Source of the DNA: Thermoleophilia bacterium
GTDB lineage: Bacteria > Actinomycetota > Thermoleophilia > Gaiellales > Gaiellaceae
DNA: 64,000 bases
Direction of reading: 5' to 3'
Assembly: GCA_009694305.1 (NCBI GenBank)
Contig: SHVL01000003.1
Coordinates: 1,508-65,507 of the forward strand
In this document: one piece after another, positions 1,345 to 28,449 of the stretch
How the letters are laid out: every line of letters starts with the position of its first letter
Numbering within the stretch: the stretch's first letter is position 1
Position numbers and translations under genes: made by a program
The notes under the pieces: model-generated
Databases searched by the model: none
The model's input: only the letters and a program-made list of their open reading frames with translations
Told to the model about the DNA's origin: nothing

Positions 1345-1920
1345 CTACGGAGCTTTCACGTCGAACGTCGCGATCAATGCCTCCGCCACGACCTTGAGCG
1401 GCCGGCCCGAGATCTGGCTCGCTTTCCGCAGCCGTGCGAACGCATCCTGTTCGCTCAATCCTTCGCGCTTCATGAGCAAGCCCTTCGCCCGCTCGATCGC
1501 CTTGCGTGCGGCAAGCGCCTCGGTGAGCGAGTCGGCCTCCTCGCGGAGTGCCGCCAGCTCGTCGTGCCGGGCACGTGCAGTTGCAATCGCGGGGAGGAGA
1601 TCGGTCTCCCGAAACGGCTTCACGAGATAGCCGAAGACACCGGCCTCGACCGCCCGCGAGACGAGCTCCTGCTCACCATAGGCGGTCACCATCACGATCG
1701 GGATTGGGCGCTCCTCGAGGATGCGCCTCGCCGCCTCGATCCCGTCCAGTTTCGGCATTTTCACGTCGAGCAGAGCGAGATCGGGCTCGAGCGTGCGGGC
1801 AAGCATGACCGCCTCCTCTCCGTCCTTCGCCTCTGCGCACACGTCAAAACCGGCCTTCTCGAGCATCGCTCGCAGGTCGAGCCTGATGATCGTCTCGTCT
1901 TCAGCGATCAGGATGCGCAT
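1345..1920 (-). CDS. pdtaR: Response regulator with receiver plus ANTAR RNA-binding output domain (PdtaR-like)
   Basis: The N-terminal receiver reads MRILIAEDETIIRLDL...LLDVKMPKLDG...KP. The C-terminus AARKAIERAKGLLMKREGLSEQDAFARLRKASQISGRPLKVVAEALI is a typical ANTAR domain. Confidence 0.9.
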   Translation of the reverse strand: MRILIAEDETIIRLDLRAMLEKAGFDVCAEAKDGEEAVMLARTLEPDLALLDVKMPKLDGIEAARRILEERPIPIVMVTAYGEQELVSRAVEAGVFGYLVKPFRETDLLPAIATARARHDELAALREEADSLTEALAARKAIERAKGLLMKREGLSEQDAFARLRKASQISGRPLKVVAEALIATFDVKAP

Positions 1921-3340
1921 CGTCGTCCTTTCGCAGGCTTGCCGGGAACCGGACCTCGGCGTGCAGACCGTGGTCGTCTACGAGCGTCAGCTCTCCACCG
2001 AGCTCGTCACGCACGAGGGCGCGGACGATGGAGAGACCCGTACTGTCGGGCGCGGCCTGGATGCCGTCTCCGTCGTCGGCGATCGCAAGCACGACATCCC
2101 CGTCGCACCCCGTCAACGCGATCGAGATCGCCCCCCCGCCATGCTCGAGCGCATTACCGAACAGCTCGGTGAAGACGAGTGCGAGCGAGGTCGCCCGTTG
2201 GCCCGCGAGCGACAGTGGCTCGAGCGAGGAGCTGACGTCCTTTCCGACGACGAGCCCCTGCACGAGCATCGCGCGGAGCCGGTCGATCAGCTCGTCGAGA
2301 TCGACGTCGTCCTCCCGATGTTCGGTCAGTACCTCGTGGACGGCGGCAATCGCAAGAATCCGGTTGACCGAATCGCCGAGCGCCTTCTGGGGATCGACGT
2401 CCTCGGTACGAGCCTGCAGGCGCAGGAGCGACGCGACCGTCTGCAGGTTGTTCTTGACCCGGTGGTGGATCTCCTGAGCAAGCACCCCGCGCAGCGCCAT
2501 GCGGCCGTGTTCGAGAGCCACGGCAGCCTGGCTCGCAATCGCCTCGAGGAGCTGGCGGTCGTCGTCGGAGAACGGGATGTCGCGGTCAACGACGAGCTCC
2601 CCGATCGTGCGACCCCGCCAGCGCAGCGGCAGCCGCACTGCGTGCGTGCCGGCCCGCCCTTCCGGCCAGGCGATACGCCCGTCCTCGAGCACGATCGCGG
2701 CCCCGGTAGCGTTCATCGACTCGACCGTCGTCTGCACGATCGCCTCGAGCGACTCCTCGAGATAGAGCGACTCCGAGACGGCCTTCGAGATCCGGGCGAG
2801 CGCTTCGAGCTCGTGCACACGCCGTTGCGCCTGCGCGTAGAGCTGTGCATGCTCGATTGACTGTGCCACCTGCCCCGCAATCGTCATCAGCAGGCCGACC
2901 TCTGCCTGCGAGAAGGAACGCGGTTCACGTGTGCGGACGTTGAGCGCGCCCTCAAGCTTGTCCCGCGCCAGGATCGGGACGGCGAGGATCGATGCGTACT
3001 CGTCCTCGGGCAGGTTCGGGAACGACTTGAAGCGCGGATCGAGATGTGCGTCGGCGGCGATCATCACGGGAGCCCTGTCTGCGGCAGCCGCACCCGTGAT
3101 GCCTTCGCCGCGGCGCATCCGCGGGCTCGTCGTCGCATTCTCCACGCTCGTGCCGTGGGTCGCGCGCAGCACGAGCTCGTCGGTTCGCTCGTCGTAGAGG
3201 TAGACGTACGCGGAGTCGGTTTCGAGCGCTGCGGCTACCTCGTGCGCAATCGCCTCCATCACCTCCTGCAGGTCGAGCGAGGAGTTGACGACCTCGGTCG
3301 TGCGGGTGAGGAGCGCGAGGTGCCGGGCGGCGTCGTCCAC
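1901..3340 (-). CDS. pdtaS: GAF-domain sensor histidine kinase (HisKA_2 / PdtaS-like)
   Basis: It has N-terminal GAF-like repeats, the H-box EIHHRVKNNLQTVASLLRLQ and an HATPase region (FGNALEHG...DDGDGI). Its end overlaps the pdtaR start by 20 nt. The start codon is GTG. Confidence 0.85.
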   Translation of the reverse strand: MDDAARHLALLTRTTEVVNSSLDLQEVMEAIAHEVAAALETDSAYVYLYDERTDELVLRATHGTSVENATTSPRMRRGEGITGAAAADRAPVMIAADAHLDPRFKSFPNLPEDEYASILAVPILARDKLEGALNVRTREPRSFSQAEVGLLMTIAGQVAQSIEHAQLYAQAQRRVHELEALARISKAVSESLYLEESLEAIVQTTVESMNATGAAIVLEDGRIAWPEGRAGTHAVRLPLRWRGRTIGELVVDRDIPFSDDDRQLLEAIASQAAVALEHGRMALRGVLAQEIHHRVKNNLQTVASLLRLQARTEDVDPQKALGDSVNRILAIAAVHEVLTEHREDDVDLDELIDRLRAMLVQGLVVGKDVSSSLEPLSLAGQRATSLALVFTELFGNALEHGGGAISIALTGCDGDVVLAIADDGDGIQAAPDSTGLSIVRALVRDELGGELTLVDDHGLHAEVRFPASLRKDDDAHPDR

Positions 3341-3341
3341 G

Positions 3342-3815
3342 TCAGTCGAGATACGAGAGAGCGATCACGCCGAGGATCGGCACGGCAATCGTCAGCGAAA
3401 AGGTGAACCAGCCGACGATGATCAGCCGTCGCCGGGTCGCCGGAGCCCGAATGTCCTTCTCACGCGTCTCCCGCTGCAACCGTGGCCCGAGCTCGTAGTC
3501 GTGGATAAGCGCGCCGATGACGAGAAATACGACGAGCACGGACTTGACGATCAGCGTACGATCGAAGTCGGTAGAGAACGCAGCCGGGTCGAACGCTCCA
3601 TGGAGATGGGTGAGCCAGAGTCCCGAGAGGATTGCCACGCCCATCGCGCTCCACCCGAGCGGGCGCCAGCGGCGGCCGAGAGCCTTCAGCGCAACCGCAC
3701 GTGCCTCCCCCTCGAGTTTGCGGATCGCGGGGACGCCGACGAAGACGAGCACGATCGTGCCGCCGACCCAGACCGTGGCCGACATGAGATGGACGATGCG
3801 GAGAACGGTCAGCAT
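3342..3815 (-). CDS. Integral membrane protein, 4 predicted TM (CopD-like HLxxxxxWxGG N-terminus)
   Basis: The 157-aa hydrophobic ORF stops 1 nt before the kinase start, making it the first gene of the kinase/regulator operon. Its function is unknown. Confidence 0.5.
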   Translation of the reverse strand: MLTVLRIVHLMSATVWVGGTIVLVFVGVPAIRKLEGEARAVALKALGRRWRPLGWSAMGVAILSGLWLTHLHGAFDPAAFSTDFDRTLIVKSVLVVFLVIGALIHDYELGPRLQRETREKDIRAPATRRRLIIVGWFTFSLTIAVPILGVIALSYLD

Positions 3816-4014: not shown

Positions 4015-5451
4015 CTACAGTGCGGCGAGGTAGCGGTCGAGCTCCCACTGCGACACCTGCATCCGGTACTCGTCCCACTCGGTCCGCTTGAGCTCGACAT
4101 ACCGTGGGAAGATGTGGTCGCCGAGCGCCTTCCGCATCAGCTCCGAGCCTGCGCACTCCTCGACGGCCTCTCCCAGCGAGCCCGGCAGCGCCTCGATGCT
4201 CTGCTCCTGGCGCTCCTCGTCGGTGAGCCGGTACAGGTTGGTCGTCATCTCGGGCGGCAGTACGTAGCCCTTCTCGATCCCCTCGAGGCCTGCATGCAGC
4301 AGGGCTGCGAAGGCGAGGTACGGGTTACAGGCCGGATCCGGGCAGCGAATCTCTGCCCGGGTTCCCTGCTCGGAGCCCGGCTTGTAGAGCGGGATCCTGA
4401 TCAGAGCCGTGCGGTTCCGCTGCGACCACGCCACGTACACCGGCGCCTCGTAGCCCGGCACGAGCCGCTTGTAGGAGTTGACCCATTGGGCCAGCACGGC
4501 CGACAACTCGCGGGCATGGATGAGGATTCCTGCGATGAACGACTTCGCCGTGTCGGACAGGTGGTTCGGGTCATTCGCGTCGAAGAACCTGTTGCGGCCA
4601 CCCTTGAACAGCGACATGTGCGTGTGCATCCCCGAGCCGTTCTCGCCAAACAGCGGCTTCGGCATGAAGGTGGCGTAGTAGCCGTGCCACGCGGCGACTT
4701 CCTTGACGACGATCCGGTAGGTCATCGTCTTGTCGGCCATCGAGAGCGCGTTGTCGTACCGCATGTCGATCTCGTGCTGGGACGGGGCGACCTCGTGATG
4801 GTGATACTCGATCTGGATCCCGACCGACTCGAGGGCGGTGATCGTGTCGTTGCGTACCTCGGTGGCCGCGTCCTGCACGGTCATCGCGAAGTAGCCACCC
4901 TCGTCGATCGTCTCGGTTCCCTTGTCGTTCTCGAACAGGAAGTACTCGAGCTCCGGCCCGACGTTGAACGTGTCGAAGCCCATCTTCTTCATCCGCTCGA
5001 GAGCGAGCTTGAGGATGTAGCGCGGGTCACCCTCGTAGGGTGTGCCGTCGGGCTTGACGATGTCGCAGATCATCCGCCCGACCTTTGCGCCCAGCTCGTG
5101 CCCGTGGTTGTCTACCGGGCGCGGCATGATCTCGAACGTCAGCGGGTCGGGGATCGCGACCATGTCCGACTCCTCGATCCGGTTGAACCCGGTAATCGAC
5201 GAGCCGTCGAAGCCCATCCCGTCGTCGAGTGCTCCCGCCATCTCGTTGGGCGTGATCGCGAACGACTTGAGGTGGCCCTCGATGTCGGTGAACCAGAAGA
5301 GGACGTGCTCGACACCCTCGTCCTTGATCCGCTTCAACACAGCGCGGCGCGCGGTGAAGCTCGATGTTGCCCTGTCCTTGCTCGTCACCTGCGCCGGTCG
5401 CTTCGCCGGTCGCTTCGCCGGTGCTGCGGCAGTGGTTCGTGGTCGCGCCAT
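4015..5451 (-). CDS. glnA: Glutamine synthetase type I with about 40-aa basic N-terminal extension
   Basis: GS motifs are present: FWFTDIEGHLKSF, NGSGMHTHMSLF and NRTALIRIP. I chose the ATG at 5451 because the SD GGGAGGAG (5458-5465) lies 6 nt upstream. The 591-aa track ORF extends further but lacks coding character. Confidence 0.9.
   Translation of the reverse strand: MARPRTTAAAPAKRPAKRPAQVTSKDRATSSFTARRAVLKRIKDEGVEHVLFWFTDIEGHLKSFAITPNEMAGALDDGMGFDGSSITGFNRIEESDMVAIPDPLTFEIMPRPVDNHGHELGAKVGRMICDIVKPDGTPYEGDPRYILKLALERMKKMGFDTFNVGPELEYFLFENDKGTETIDEGGYFAMTVQDAATEVRNDTITALESVGIQIEYHHHEVAPSQHEIDMRYDNALSMADKTMTYRIVVKEVAAWHGYYATFMPKPLFGENGSGMHTHMSLFKGGRNRFFDANDPNHLSDTAKSFIAGILIHARELSAVLAQWVNSYKRLVPGYEAPVYVAWSQRNRTALIRIPLYKPGSEQGTRAEIRCPDPACNPYLAFAALLHAGLEGIEKGYVLPPEMTTNLYRLTDEERQEQSIEALPGSLGEAVEECAGSELMRKALGDHIFPRYVELKRTEWDEYRMQVSQWELDRYLAAL
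5399..5422. repeat. Perfect 12-bp tandem duplication (cgcttcgccggt x2) inside the glnA 5' end
   Basis: Read directly from the sequence. It encodes AKRP-AKRP in the N-terminal extension. Confidence 0.9.
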
Positions 5452-5474
5452 TTCTTGCTCCTCCCGTAAGAACG

Positions 5475-5507
5475 AAAAAAGCCCCAGGCGCAAACAGCGC
5501 CTGAGGC
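5475..5507 (-). terminator. Intrinsic-terminator-like hairpin in the glnA 5' leader
   Basis: The minus strand reads GCCTCAGGCGC-TGTTT-GCGCCTGGGGC followed by TTTTTT. The stem is 11 bp including one G.U pair. It lies about 25 nt upstream of the glnA ATG, and there is no upstream same-strand gene for it to terminate. Confidence 0.7.
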
Positions 5508-5518
5508 TCCATTGCCTC
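5503..5518 (-). promoter_or_regulatory. Hexaloop hairpin overlapping the glnA leader terminator (ANTAR-substrate-like)
   Basis: The minus strand reads GAGGC-AATGGA-GCCTC. The loop has A at position 1 and G at position 4. The 3' arm is the first 5 nt of the terminator 5' arm. Confidence 0.35.
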
Positions 5519-5683
5519 GAAATCGACACACGTAGGATAGCAGGGCAGAGCGGCGGCTGCGGCGCTCCCGTTACCGCACCGCCGGAATCCCCTCGGCCGA
5601 CGCCGGACTCGACCTGCTTGCGGGACACGCCGGGCTCGGCTACGCTGTGATCTCCGGAGGGGACGACGAAGGCTTCTCCGTGT

Positions 5684-5695
5684 GGCAACGATGCC
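5684..5695 (+). promoter_or_regulatory. Hexaloop hairpin overlapping the P-II leader terminator (ANTAR-substrate-like)
   Basis: The plus strand reads GGC-AACGAT-GCC, with loop A1 and G4. The 3' arm begins the terminator 5' arm. The stem is only 3 bp. Confidence 0.3.
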
Positions 5696-5730
5696 TCAGT
5701 GCTCTCTGCGAGCCCTGGGGCTTTTTGTTG
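5693..5730 (+). terminator. Intrinsic-terminator-like hairpin in the P-II/amt 5' leader
   Basis: The plus strand reads GCCTCAG-T-GCTC-TCTGC-GAGC-C-CTGGGGC followed by TTTTTGTTG. It is followed by the SD GAGGAGG (5738-5744) and the ATG at 5753. Confidence 0.65.
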
Positions 5731-5752
5731 CTCCAACGAGGAGGCCGGGCAG

Positions 5753-6058
5753 ATGATGAAAGTCGAAGCGGTGGTTGTTCGCGACCGCATCGAGACGGTG
5801 ATCGAGGCAGTGGGTCACGGACGCGAGAAAGGGATTACCCACGAGTACCGGGGTCGCGTGTTCGAGTCGCGCTTCCTGCCGAAGGCTCTGATGACCTTCG
5901 TCGTTCCCGCTGGGATTGTGGACGGCGTGATTGACGCCATCGTGGATGCTGCGCGCACCGGCCGCGCGAGTGGAGACGGCATCTGCTGGGCTTCTCCTGT
6001 AGGCCGCGTGACCCACAACCGAACAGGAGCAAGGCTGGGCGAGGTGGGCGAGGTATGA
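5753..6058 (+). CDS. P-II (GlnB/GlnK) family-like protein, shortened (101 aa)
   Basis: The sequence reads MKVEAVV..., GHGREKGITHEYRG, FLPK and GDGICW...RTG, which parallels the canonical P-II order. About 14 residues corresponding to strand beta2 are absent. Its stop overlaps the amt ATG (ATGA). Confidence 0.6.
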   Translation: MMKVEAVVVRDRIETVIEAVGHGREKGITHEYRGRVFESRFLPKALMTFVVPAGIVDGVIDAIVDAARTGRASGDGICWASPVGRVTHNRTGARLGEVGEV

Positions 6059-7381
6059 CCGTCAAGGAGCTGGGATTCGCAGCGAGCACGATCTGGGTCG
6101 TCCTCGCGGCCATCCTCGTGATCTTCATGCAGGCGGGGTTCGCGCTCCTCGAGGCGGGCCTGACCCGGATGAAGAACGTCGGTCACATAGCGGCGAAGAA
6201 CGTCCTCATCCTCGCCATCGTCTCGATCGTCTACTACCTCGTCGGCTTTGGAATCGCTTTCGGCGACGGGGGCAACGGCTTCGCCGGTGGCTCCGGCTCC
6301 TTCCCGTCGGTCGATGATCTCCTCTCGATCGGCCAGGCTCCGTTCTCGTGGTTCAGCGCCATCCCCGGTGCGGCGGGCTACCTGTTCGAGGTGGCCTTCG
6401 CCGCCGTCTCGCTTACGATCGTCTGGGGCGCTATGGCAGAACGGACAAAGCTCTGGGTCTACTTCGCGTTCGGCGCCGTCTTCACGCTGATCTATTCCCT
6501 CGTCTCGCACTGGATCTGGAGCCCCGAGGGGTGGCTGTTCTCGCGGGGATGCAGGACTTCGCCGGCTCGACCGTCGTCCACTATCAGGGCGCACCCGCAG
6601 GACTCGCAGGGGCGATCCTGCTCGGGCCGAGGCTCGGAGTTCGGCTCCGACGGCAAGCCCAACACGATCCCGGGGCACAACATGGCGTTCACGACGCTCG
6701 GCGTGCTGATCCTCTGGTTCGGCTGGTTCGGCTGGTTCGGCTTCAGCCCGGGCTCGACGCTCTCGGTTGACTTCGGCGGCGTCGGCTTCTTCGCCTACGT
6801 GGCGTTGAACACGAACCTCGCCGCGGCGGCCGGTGTGCTCGGTGCGGTCGTCACGTCGTGGATCGTCGTCAAGAAGCCCGACCTCTCGATGATGCTGAAC
6901 GGCGCCGTGGGCCGCAATCGTGATCGGGTTCGCCTCGGGAATCGTCGTCGTCGGCTCGCTCTTCGTCGAGAAGATCGGGATCGACGATCCGGTCGGGGCG
7001 ATCGCGGCTCACGGCATGTCGGGTGTCCGGGGCACGCTTTCGCTCGGGTTCCTGGCGGTGCCGAAGCTGGCAGACAAGCTCGCGACGGGCAAGGGTGGCC
7101 TGTTCTACGGCGGCGGCTTCCACCAACTCGGGACCCAGGCCGTCGGCCTCCTCGCGGTCGGCGCGTTCACGTTCACGCTTTCGTTCGGCATCCTGCTGCT
7201 CTTCAAGGTGACGGTCGGGATCAGGACGGATCCGGAGCACGAGCAGATGGGCCTCGACGTCTCCGAGCACGGCATGTGGGGCTGTCCCGAGTTCTACATC
7301 CCCGTACCGGGTGGCTACGGCACCGAGCATGGACACCTCGTGACACAGCAGGTCAGAGTCCCGGCGGCCGGTCTCGAGTAG
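6055..7381 (+). pseudogene. amt: Ammonium transporter (Amt) gene with multiple frame disruptions
   Basis: Amt homology starts in frame 1 (to about 6548). It moves to frame 3 (MQDFAGSTVVHYQGAPAGLAGAILLGPRLG, 6549-6638), returns to frame 1 (FGSDGKPNTIPGHNMAF...WFGWFGWFGF...MLNGAVG), then moves to frame 2 from about 6902 (APWAAIVIGFASG...DDPVGAIAAHGMSG...) until the stop at 7381. Confidence 0.7.
6714..6740. repeat. Three perfect tandem copies of ctggttcgg inside amt
   Basis: Read directly from the sequence. It encodes WFG-WFG-WFG where the Amt signature normally has WFGWFGF, so there is one extra unit. Confidence 0.85.
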
Positions 7382-28353: not shown

Positions 28354-28449
28354 CTCCACATCAAGAGAGGCTGAGGGACCGGCCCTGTGAAGCCTCGGCA
28401 ACCTGCCCCACATATCGGGCGACGGTGCCAATCCCGGACGGATGTCGAG
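28354..28449 (+). promoter_or_regulatory. SAM-I (S-box) class riboswitch aptamer
   Basis: The element CTCCACATCAAGAGAGGCTGAGGGACCGGCCCTGTGAAGCCTCGGCAACC...GGTGCCAATCCCGGACGGATGTCGAG matches the remembered consensus AUCAAGAGAGG-GAGGGAC-GGCCC-GAAGCC-GGCAACC...GGUGCCAAUUCC. P1 pairs CUCCACAUC with GAUGUCGAG. P4 is very short. The SD at 28458-28463 and the ATG at 28473 follow directly, with no terminator. Confidence 0.85.

Follow-up and report, generated by a model that had tools for sequence, protein, structure and literature searches.

Leader terminators of divergent glutamine synthetase and P-II-like/amt genes as predicted ANTAR antitermination targets in a Thermoleophilia bacterium

A 64,000-nucleotide stretch of a Thermoleophilia bacterium genome (assembly GCA_009694305.1, contig SHVL01000003.1, positions 1,508 to 65,507; hereafter the window, with positions counted from its first letter) carries the type I glutamine synthetase gene glnA on the minus strand and, divergently from it, a plus-strand unit made up of a gene for a P-II-like protein and the ammonium transporter gene amt. 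In both units, a hairpin followed by a U-tract is located between the predicted promoter and the Shine-Dalgarno (SD) sequence. The two attenuators are probably controlled by antitermination of the ANTAR type, most likely exerted by a two-component system encoded at the same locus, a reading favoured by the near-identity of the leader hairpins to the sites of the ANTAR regulators EutV and GnfR and by the presence of an ANTAR gene nearby. The genes preceded by such modules in related genomes form a regulon of nitrogen assimilation. This would make the system a variant of a known ANTAR mechanism in a new lineage, and not a new mechanism.

An earlier reading of the same letters (the original prediction) had proposed termination-based RNA control of nitrogen assimilation. 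The attenuators, their conservation and their regulon supported this proposal, whereas the novelty that it implied did not stand. No recognisable aptamer had been seen, but the GGCAAYG prefix common to both modules is the 5' half of an ANTAR recognition hairpin; moreover, an ANTAR regulator gene adjoins glnA, and ANTAR targets before P-II, amt and glutamine synthetase genes had been tabulated in 2012.

Paired terminator modules and their conservation

The intergenic region between glnA and the P-II-like gene is about 300 bp long and contains both modules with the predicted promoters between them, and there is no same-strand gene upstream of either module. As first described, a hairpin and a U-tract lie 5' of each SD sequence, all the quoted letters are present at matching coordinates, and the two modules have the prefix, the stem base and the same U.G wobble (GCCUC/GGGGC) in common. 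Since each module is conserved and is placed after a conserved predicted -10 box and before an SD sequence, both were interpreted as 5'-leader attenuators rather than as gene-end terminators, in agreement with the original prediction. The positions of all the features are collected in Table 1.

Table 1. Features of the glnA and P-II-like/amt leaders and of the genes around them (window coordinates)
Feature	Position	Strand	Details
glnA promoter element, extended -10, predicted	5534-5542	-	TGcTATCCT; ends 15 nt before P2
glnA leader P2, antiterminator mini-hairpin	5503-5518	-	GAGGC-AAUGGA-GCCUC; hexaloop with A1 and G4
GGCAATGGAGCC of glnA leader	5516-5505	-	letters exactly as first quoted
glnA leader intrinsic terminator, predicted	5475-5507	-	5' base GCCUC common to P2
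U6 tract of glnA leader	5480-5475	-	directly 3' of terminator stem
SD of glnA	5465-5458	-	GGGAGGAG
glnA, type I glutamine synthetase, regulated gene	4015-5451	-	ATG at 5451
CopD/DUF2269 membrane protein gene	3342-3815	-	between glnA and kinase gene
GAF-GAF-HisKA_2-HATPase histidine kinase, proposed sensor	1901-3340	-	domains from Pfam
REC-ANTAR response regulator, PdtaR-like, proposed antiterminator	1345-1920	-	Pfam Response_reg 3e-29, ANTAR 8e-20
P-II-like/amt promoter, predicted	5617-5646	+	-35 CTTGCG 5617-5622; 18-nt spacer; -10 TACGCT 5641-5646
P-II leader P1 hairpin	5655-5680	+	hexaloop GACGAA 5665-5670; about -11 kcal/mol
P-II leader P2 mini-hairpin	5682-5697	+	core GGC-AACGAU-GCC 5684-5695; hexaloop with A1 and G4
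GGCAACGATGCC of P-II leader	5684-5695	+	letters exactly as first quoted
P-II leader intrinsic terminator, predicted	5693-5729	+	stems GCCUCAG/CUGGGGC and GCUC/GAGC, then UUUUUGUU
SD of P-II-like gene	5738-5744	+	GAGGAGG
P-II-like gene, first of regulated unit	5753-6058	+	ATG at 5753; Pfam P-II 4.4e-9
amt, ammonium transporter gene, disrupted by indels	6055-7381	+	Pfam Ammonium_transp on two pieces

In both modules a GC-rich stem-loop stands directly 5' of a U-tract on the transcribed strand, as predicted for an intrinsic terminator, and both were also detected by a simple terminator scan. The glnA module folds at -27.6 kcal/mol (z = -5.1) and the P-II module at -27.5 kcal/mol (z = -4.7), energies that none of 200 shuffles equalled, and GGCAAYGNNGCC was found three times in the window against 0.45 expected. 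Under a covariance model the copies scored 62.9 bits (glnA) and 48.8 bits (P-II), both being inside the training set, whereas the next best sense-strand match in the 64 kb reached 12.6 bits and the antisense copy 14.6 bits. No further copies were detected in the window by pattern search or by the covariance model with filters off.

Within each leader, the terminator overlaps a smaller hairpin, P2, which has a six-nucleotide loop and whose 3' arm is the 5' base of the terminator, as in known ANTAR targets. The loops of both copies, AAUGGA and AACGAU, begin with A and have G as their fourth base. In the glnA leader, the order from 5' to 3' is -10 box, spacer of 15 nt, P2, terminator stem, U6, SD and ATG. 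The terminator arm GCCUCAGGCGC (5507-5497) pairs with GCGCCUGGGGC (5491-5481) around the loop UGUUU, in a stem stated as 14 bp of which GCCUC is the start. P2 alone has a folding energy of -7.3 kcal/mol compared to -27.0 kcal/mol for the terminator, which is thus the default fold of this leader. When P2 was enforced, an upper helix of 6 bp remained that was no longer adjacent to the U-tract. In the P-II leader, the terminator hairpin spans 5693-5721 and is followed by U5-G-UU at 5722-5729; its 5' base is likewise common to P2. P2 and the terminator are therefore mutually exclusive, because a closed P2 occupies the GCCUC arm and precludes the full terminator.

The module was followed in relatives through a scan with the GlnA protein, taking one genome per species, which yielded 80 loci (given L numbers here), all from Thermoleophilia/Gaiellales metagenome-assembled genomes or isolates. 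The covariance model, built from 37 modules, matched 92 modules across these loci, and in 59 cases glnA was the gene immediately downstream. In the terminator stem 95.8% of the alignment cells were paired, double changes were found at six upper pairs, and none of 500 shuffles scored as high. The lower arm GCCUC was invariant among the aligned modules, as expected if this arm pairs with two partners and is read by a protein. The U.G pair was kept in 32 of the 37 sequences and would become a C.A mismatch on the other strand; as it can function in the sense-strand RNA only, the element appears to work as RNA rather than at the DNA level. Absence of the motif from orthologous leaders had been named beforehand as a result that would speak against the attenuators; the motif was conserved instead, with a strongly covarying terminator stem.

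P2 was equally constant, with 95.8% of cells paired across the 92 homologous modules. In its loop, position 4 was G in 91 of 92 and position 2 was A in 87 of 92, while position 1 was A in 46 and G in 45. The consensus for the clade is thus RAYGNN, and the copies in the window are canonical.

Further copies before other nitrogen-assimilation genes had been suggested as a check, and they were found: on the strand opposite to glnA, modules in the relatives precede P-II-like/amt units, genes for GlnII-type glutamine synthetase (GSII) and genes for a second type I glutamine synthetase (GSI). One more such module, in L048 (649-695, minus strand), is located before a gene for a phosphinothricin/arsinothricin-type N-acetyltransferase, a resistance enzyme against inhibitors of glutamine synthetase, which would belong to the same putative regulon.

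The genes of the window itself were also inspected. The product of glnA matched Gln-synt_C in Pfam (9e-132) and TIGR00653 in NCBIfam (521.8 bits). The P-II-like gene shows an in-frame deletion of 45 nt near 5794, by which about 15 residues are lost that all the relatives keep (for instance ...EAATGHVGVTVIEAV... in L059). Compared to L059, amt carries indels of -1 at 6541, -2 at 6638, +9 at 6714 and, with a change of frame, -47 at 6905. These differences may reflect errors in the assembly or a decay of the P-II-like/amt operon in this bacterium.

Two leader architectures

The leaders fell into two classes that differ in the distance between the predicted promoter and P2. In class A, the glnA leaders, all 60 cases (5.1 expected) have a TANNNT hexamer whose end is 8-16 nt away from P2 on its 5' side, with a TGn extension in 26 of the 60, and P2 starts about 5-9 nt from the predicted 5' end of the mRNA. 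In class B, the leaders on the opposite strand, which include the P-II/amt leader of the window, the hexamer ends 28-35 nt before P2, and a CTTGAC -35 box is frequent among the relatives.

The additional distance in class B accommodates a second, upstream hexaloop hairpin, P1, which is present in the P-II/amt leader. Of 32 class-B leaders, 21 have a P1-like hairpin where 8.3 would be expected; the P1 helices of the orthologues were 91% paired, with compensatory changes in all six pairs. The loop consensus G-N-C-G-A-N and the RAYGNN loops of P2 are of one family, although the first base of the P1 loop is G (25 of 28), the G at position 4 being kept in 26 of 28. In the glnA leader there is no P1, since only 11-15 nt separate the conserved -10 box from P2. 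A P1 was sought in this leader by eye, with RNAfold and in a systematic hexaloop scan; the UCGAUUUCGA hairpin of the window was rejected because it is not conserved, and the conserved hexamer upstream of the glnA P2 is the predicted -10 box and not a loop. Class B would thus correspond to the classical dual-hexaloop target with a variant P1 loop, and class A to a form with P2 only.

Other sequence elements were seen in these leaders. GGTCC(R)A follows the U-tract directly in 19 of 32 class-B leaders compared to 1 of 60 glnA leaders; it was found in L003, L004, L007, L008, L018, L028, L030, L032, L033, L039, L044, L045, L048, L055, L059, L076 and others, and the window has the variant GCTCCAA (5727-5736). 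In addition, GTCC-N4-GGAC or GTCCG is placed between the -35 and -10 boxes of several class-B promoters (L063, L034, L023, L035, L076, L032, L018, L033 and L051, listed together with 5619-5640 of the window). GTCC-N4-GGAC could be the operator of a DNA-binding regulator that adds to the control by the attenuator, and its presence in some of the related promoters suggests that a DNA-level layer may coexist, where the original prediction had set RNA-level control against control at the DNA level.

A third arrangement was noted in the glnA leaders of L026, L027 and L031, which have no terminator and keep a GAGACGAU... hairpin together with a second small hairpin that overlaps the SD sequence. By analogy with mycobacteria, these hairpins may serve ANTAR control at the level of translation.

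The neighbouring two-component system and known ANTAR systems

Downstream of glnA and on the same strand, the genes for the CopD/DUF2269 membrane protein, a histidine kinase and a REC-ANTAR response regulator follow in this order, the last two at 2-4 kb from glnA. No other ANTAR match was found in the window. The best match of the regulator in the PDB was Rv1626/PdtaR of M. tuberculosis (1s8n, 2.9e-48, full length); the second was chain 6wsh_A (2.1e-35), which is titled only 'Response regulator' and which we take to be the structure of EutV. Among the 80 loci, the kinase is syntenic with glnA on the same strand in 69 and the regulator in at least 52, and most of the loci counted as being without one or the other end at a contig edge.

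The kinase has an N-terminal GAF domain whose nearest counterparts are those of PtsP (EI-Ntr) and NifA. These domains sense glutamine and/or 2-oxoglutarate, and the likeness suggests a nitrogen signal; our guess is that nitrogen status is perceived as glutamine or 2-oxoglutarate by the kinase GAF. A search of solved structures with the sensor domain of the kinase retrieved no PdtaS, although the regulator had Rv1626 as its best match, and an identity of the kinase with PdtaS was left unsupported. No terminator-like sites were found between glnA and the regulator gene in a simple scan, so that read-through could raise the levels of kinase and regulator; both may be co-transcribed with glnA, giving positive feedback.

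ANTAR control is established for nasF, amiE, eut and the nif genes of Geobacter. ANTAR targets carry a P2 mini-hairpin with A1 and G4 in the hexaloop and with a 3' arm common to the terminator, and both of these loop bases are required for EutV and for NasR; the gene for the ANTAR-domain protein is typically close by. In Enterococcus, the 13-nt element AGCAANGRRGCUY extends into the 5' portion of the terminators under EutV control; GGCAAUGGAGCCU differs from it solely by a compensatory change of an A-U to a G-C pair.

The closest functional parallel is GnfK/GnfR of Geobacter sulfurreducens, in which a kinase and a REC-ANTAR regulator also act on promoter-proximal terminators of nitrogen genes (Ueki & Lovley 2010, PMC2995071). 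There, the phosphorylated regulator GnfR binds CAGGCAANGGCGCC, a site that lies 5' of the premature terminators of these genes and overlaps them (PMC2995071). This sequence is near-identical to GAGGCAAUGGAGCC of the window and identical to AGGCAAUGGCGCC in L030 and L048. The two systems differ in several respects. The targets described here are glnA, GSII, the second GSI and P-II/amt and not nif, whereas the Geobacter glnB has no terminator; the promoters look like sigma-70/extended -10 and not sigma-54 promoters; the kinase has GAF sensors and an adjacent regulator, whereas GnfK is without GAF; and the host is an actinobacterium.

The EutV/EutW system of Enterococcus faecalis (Ramesh 2012, PMC3369931; Walshaw 2022, PMC8934654) shares with the leaders of the window a P2 hexaloop with A1 and G4 that overlaps the 5' base of the terminator, the P1 plus P2 arrangement of the P-II leader and the REC-ANTAR architecture of the regulator. 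In contrast, the glnA leader has no P1 in spite of facing a transcribing polymerase, the P1 loop is GACGAN with G at position 1, the linker between P1 and P2 is about 1-3 nt in the window compared to 5-12 nt in eut and to about 2-25 nt in the general definition of ANTAR targets, and the pathway and the signal are different.

For Firmicutes and Proteobacteria, Table S2 of Ramesh 2012 (PMC3369931) lists bioinformatically predicted ANTAR targets upstream of glutamine synthetase, P-II and amt genes, including a case in the Firmicute Alkaliphilus metalliredigens where an ANTAR regulator gene follows a glutamine synthetase gene. No Thermoleophilia or Rubrobacter-type entries were found in the supplement of that study (PMC3369931), and its dual-hairpin model would miss leaders with P2 only, such as that of glnA. 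The actinobacterial survey (Mehta 2021, PMC8164766) concerns the same phylum and PdtaR, the nearest relative of known structure of the regulator described here; the targets in it mostly overlap the ribosome-binding site or the start codon and are translational, few of them stand before terminators, nitrogen genes are not prominent, and Thermoleophilia are not mentioned. The leaders of the present locus are, in contrast, textbook terminator-coupled leaders on nitrogen-assimilation genes. A literature search for ANTAR/PdtaR control of glnA or amt in Actinobacteria returned nothing beyond the 2012 tables and the Geobacter work, and a 2025 review makes no mention of ANTAR control of glutamine synthetase.

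Proposed antitermination, alternatives and implications

According to the model proposed, the nascent leader would by default fold into the terminator (glnA, about -27 kcal/mol; P-II, about -19 kcal/mol), and transcription would halt after some 50-75 nt, before the SD sequence. Upon induction, the neighbouring GAF/HisKA_2 kinase would phosphorylate the REC-ANTAR regulator, which would then dimerise and bind the P2 hexaloop (GAGGC-AAUGGA-GCCUC or GGC-AACGAU-GCC). With P2 held closed, a short upper helix away from the U-tract would be all that could form, and the RNA polymerase would read through into glnA or into P-II/amt. The P-II/amt leader would make use of P1 and P2, whereas that of glnA would use a lone P2 situated at the extreme 5' end of the transcript. 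We infer from the sequence both the binding of the regulator to the hairpins and the positions of the transcription start sites.

Several observations weigh against this model. The evidence for ANTAR antitermination is computational throughout, the regulator is tied to the hairpins by neighbourhood and motif class only, and the identity of the kinase signal is a guess. Covariation support for P2 is thin because its stem is near-invariant, with two compensatory events in 92 sequences (GAGAC/GUCUC in L029 and AAGGC/GCCUU in L071). About one quarter of the orthologous glnA leaders are without the module, including those of the close relatives L004, L005 and L007, in which glnA has a plain leader and the divergent GSII gene has the module instead. 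No module precedes the kinase or the regulator genes. As for P1, EutV needs it in vivo, whereas it is lacking in the glnA leader: in the hexaloop scan, P1-like hairpins were at chance level in glnA leaders (12 of 60, with 12.9 expected), and their positions were scattered. Even where P1 is present in the window, its loop GACGAA has G and not the A of ANTAR targets at position 1, and the helix contains an internal A/G mismatch under the closing C-G pair.

The difficulty raised by the missing P1 is lessened by structural work on EutV, in which the minimal ANTAR binding unit was reduced to one hexaloop and P1 kept a role in recruitment during transcription (PMC8934654). Under this definition of 2022, the glnA leader qualifies as a predicted ANTAR binding site, and a conserved attenuator with P2 only would be a mild departure from the model based on EutV.

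The same gap leaves room for recognition of the hexaloop by a trans-acting factor other than the neighbouring ANTAR regulator. This could be a small RNA or a protein, either the unusual P-II-like protein or a different RNA-binding one, and the ANTAR gene would then be close by coincidence or for other targets. Such a factor is unlikely. It would account for the glnA leaders being without the P1 that classical ANTAR antitermination needs, it could be connected with the GGTCC element conserved after the U-tract of class-B leaders, and it is compatible with a regulator-RNA link made by motif class and synteny. However, the loop and its closing pairs agree at nearly every base with two ANTAR sites that were validated independently, the window has no ANTAR gene besides that of the regulator, whose synteny extends to more than 50 genomes, and no further RNA-binding regulator was evident at the locus with Pfam.

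It is decidedly improbable that the hairpins are unregulated and act as constitutive partial terminators or 5' stabilisers that fix the level of expression or insulate the divergent promoters. Both are indeed strong canonical terminators, and conditional read-through is something that we infer; yet a constitutive terminator of -27 kcal/mol before the main glutamine synthetase gene would be costly, and the GAGGC-RAYGNN prefix marks nitrogen genes only. This prefix is, in addition, as invariant as the stem base in spite of lying outside the terminator stem, which is hard to account for without an alternative hairpin or a binding site.

A small-molecule riboswitch, for example for glutamine or 2-oxoglutarate, with the terminator as its expression platform is very unlikely. 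The downstream genes are those of nitrogen assimilation, and the organism does have a SAM riboswitch (RF00162, 73.8 bits, 28355-28448, plus strand, upstream of a threonine-synthase-like open reading frame and then leuC). Nevertheless, Rfam gave no family at the gathering score in the region 5300-5900, and at E<=10 there were only spurious, terminator-like matches to models of small RNAs and microRNAs. The glutamine riboswitch (glnA RNA/Downstream-peptide), which the original prediction had already discounted, was rejected on the same grounds. Besides, the 5-9 nt or so before the 16-nt hairpin of the glnA leaders are too little for an aptamer, and the conserved part is a known protein-binding motif.

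Inverted repeats acting as DNA operators for a dimeric factor of the GlnR, AmtR or TnrA type would fit GC-rich palindromes near nitrogen-gene promoters, and the separate GTCC-N4-GGAC palindrome of some related promoters, but are very unlikely and were rejected. In the upper stem the letters are free to change as long as they pair, whereas an operator would show the reverse; the U.G pair is functional in the RNA of one strand alone; and the repeats come after the predicted -10 box, with the U-tract on one strand only.

Gaiellales/Thermoleophilia are abundant and mostly uncultured soil Actinomycetota whose regulation has been poorly studied. If ANTAR antitermination operates at this locus, one ANTAR two-component system is predicted to gate up to three glutamine synthetases together with P-II/amt through their leader terminators, from a compact locus in which kinase, regulator and two target leaders are placed within 6 kb. 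The terminator-coupled ANTAR mode has been reported for few targets in Actinobacteria, none of them nitrogen genes. For annotation, there would be a gain in not labelling these hairpins as gene-end terminators.

It is also possible, and is put forward here as a tentative proposal, that the glnA leader represents a natural and widely conserved single-hexaloop ANTAR antiterminator at the 5' extremity of the mRNA, without P1, forming a regulon with the dual-hairpin leaders of GSII, the second GSI and P-II/amt, and that nitrogen assimilation in Gaiellales/Thermoleophilia has as its master regulator the PdtaR-like two-component system with its PtsP/NifA-type GAF, which would act once transcription has been initiated and not in the manner of GlnR. 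The coexistence of leaders with P1 and P2 and leaders with P2 only would then provide a natural comparison that bears on the model of successive binding, or of a recruitment hairpin; if the proposal is true, a single hexaloop can suffice against a transcribing polymerase.

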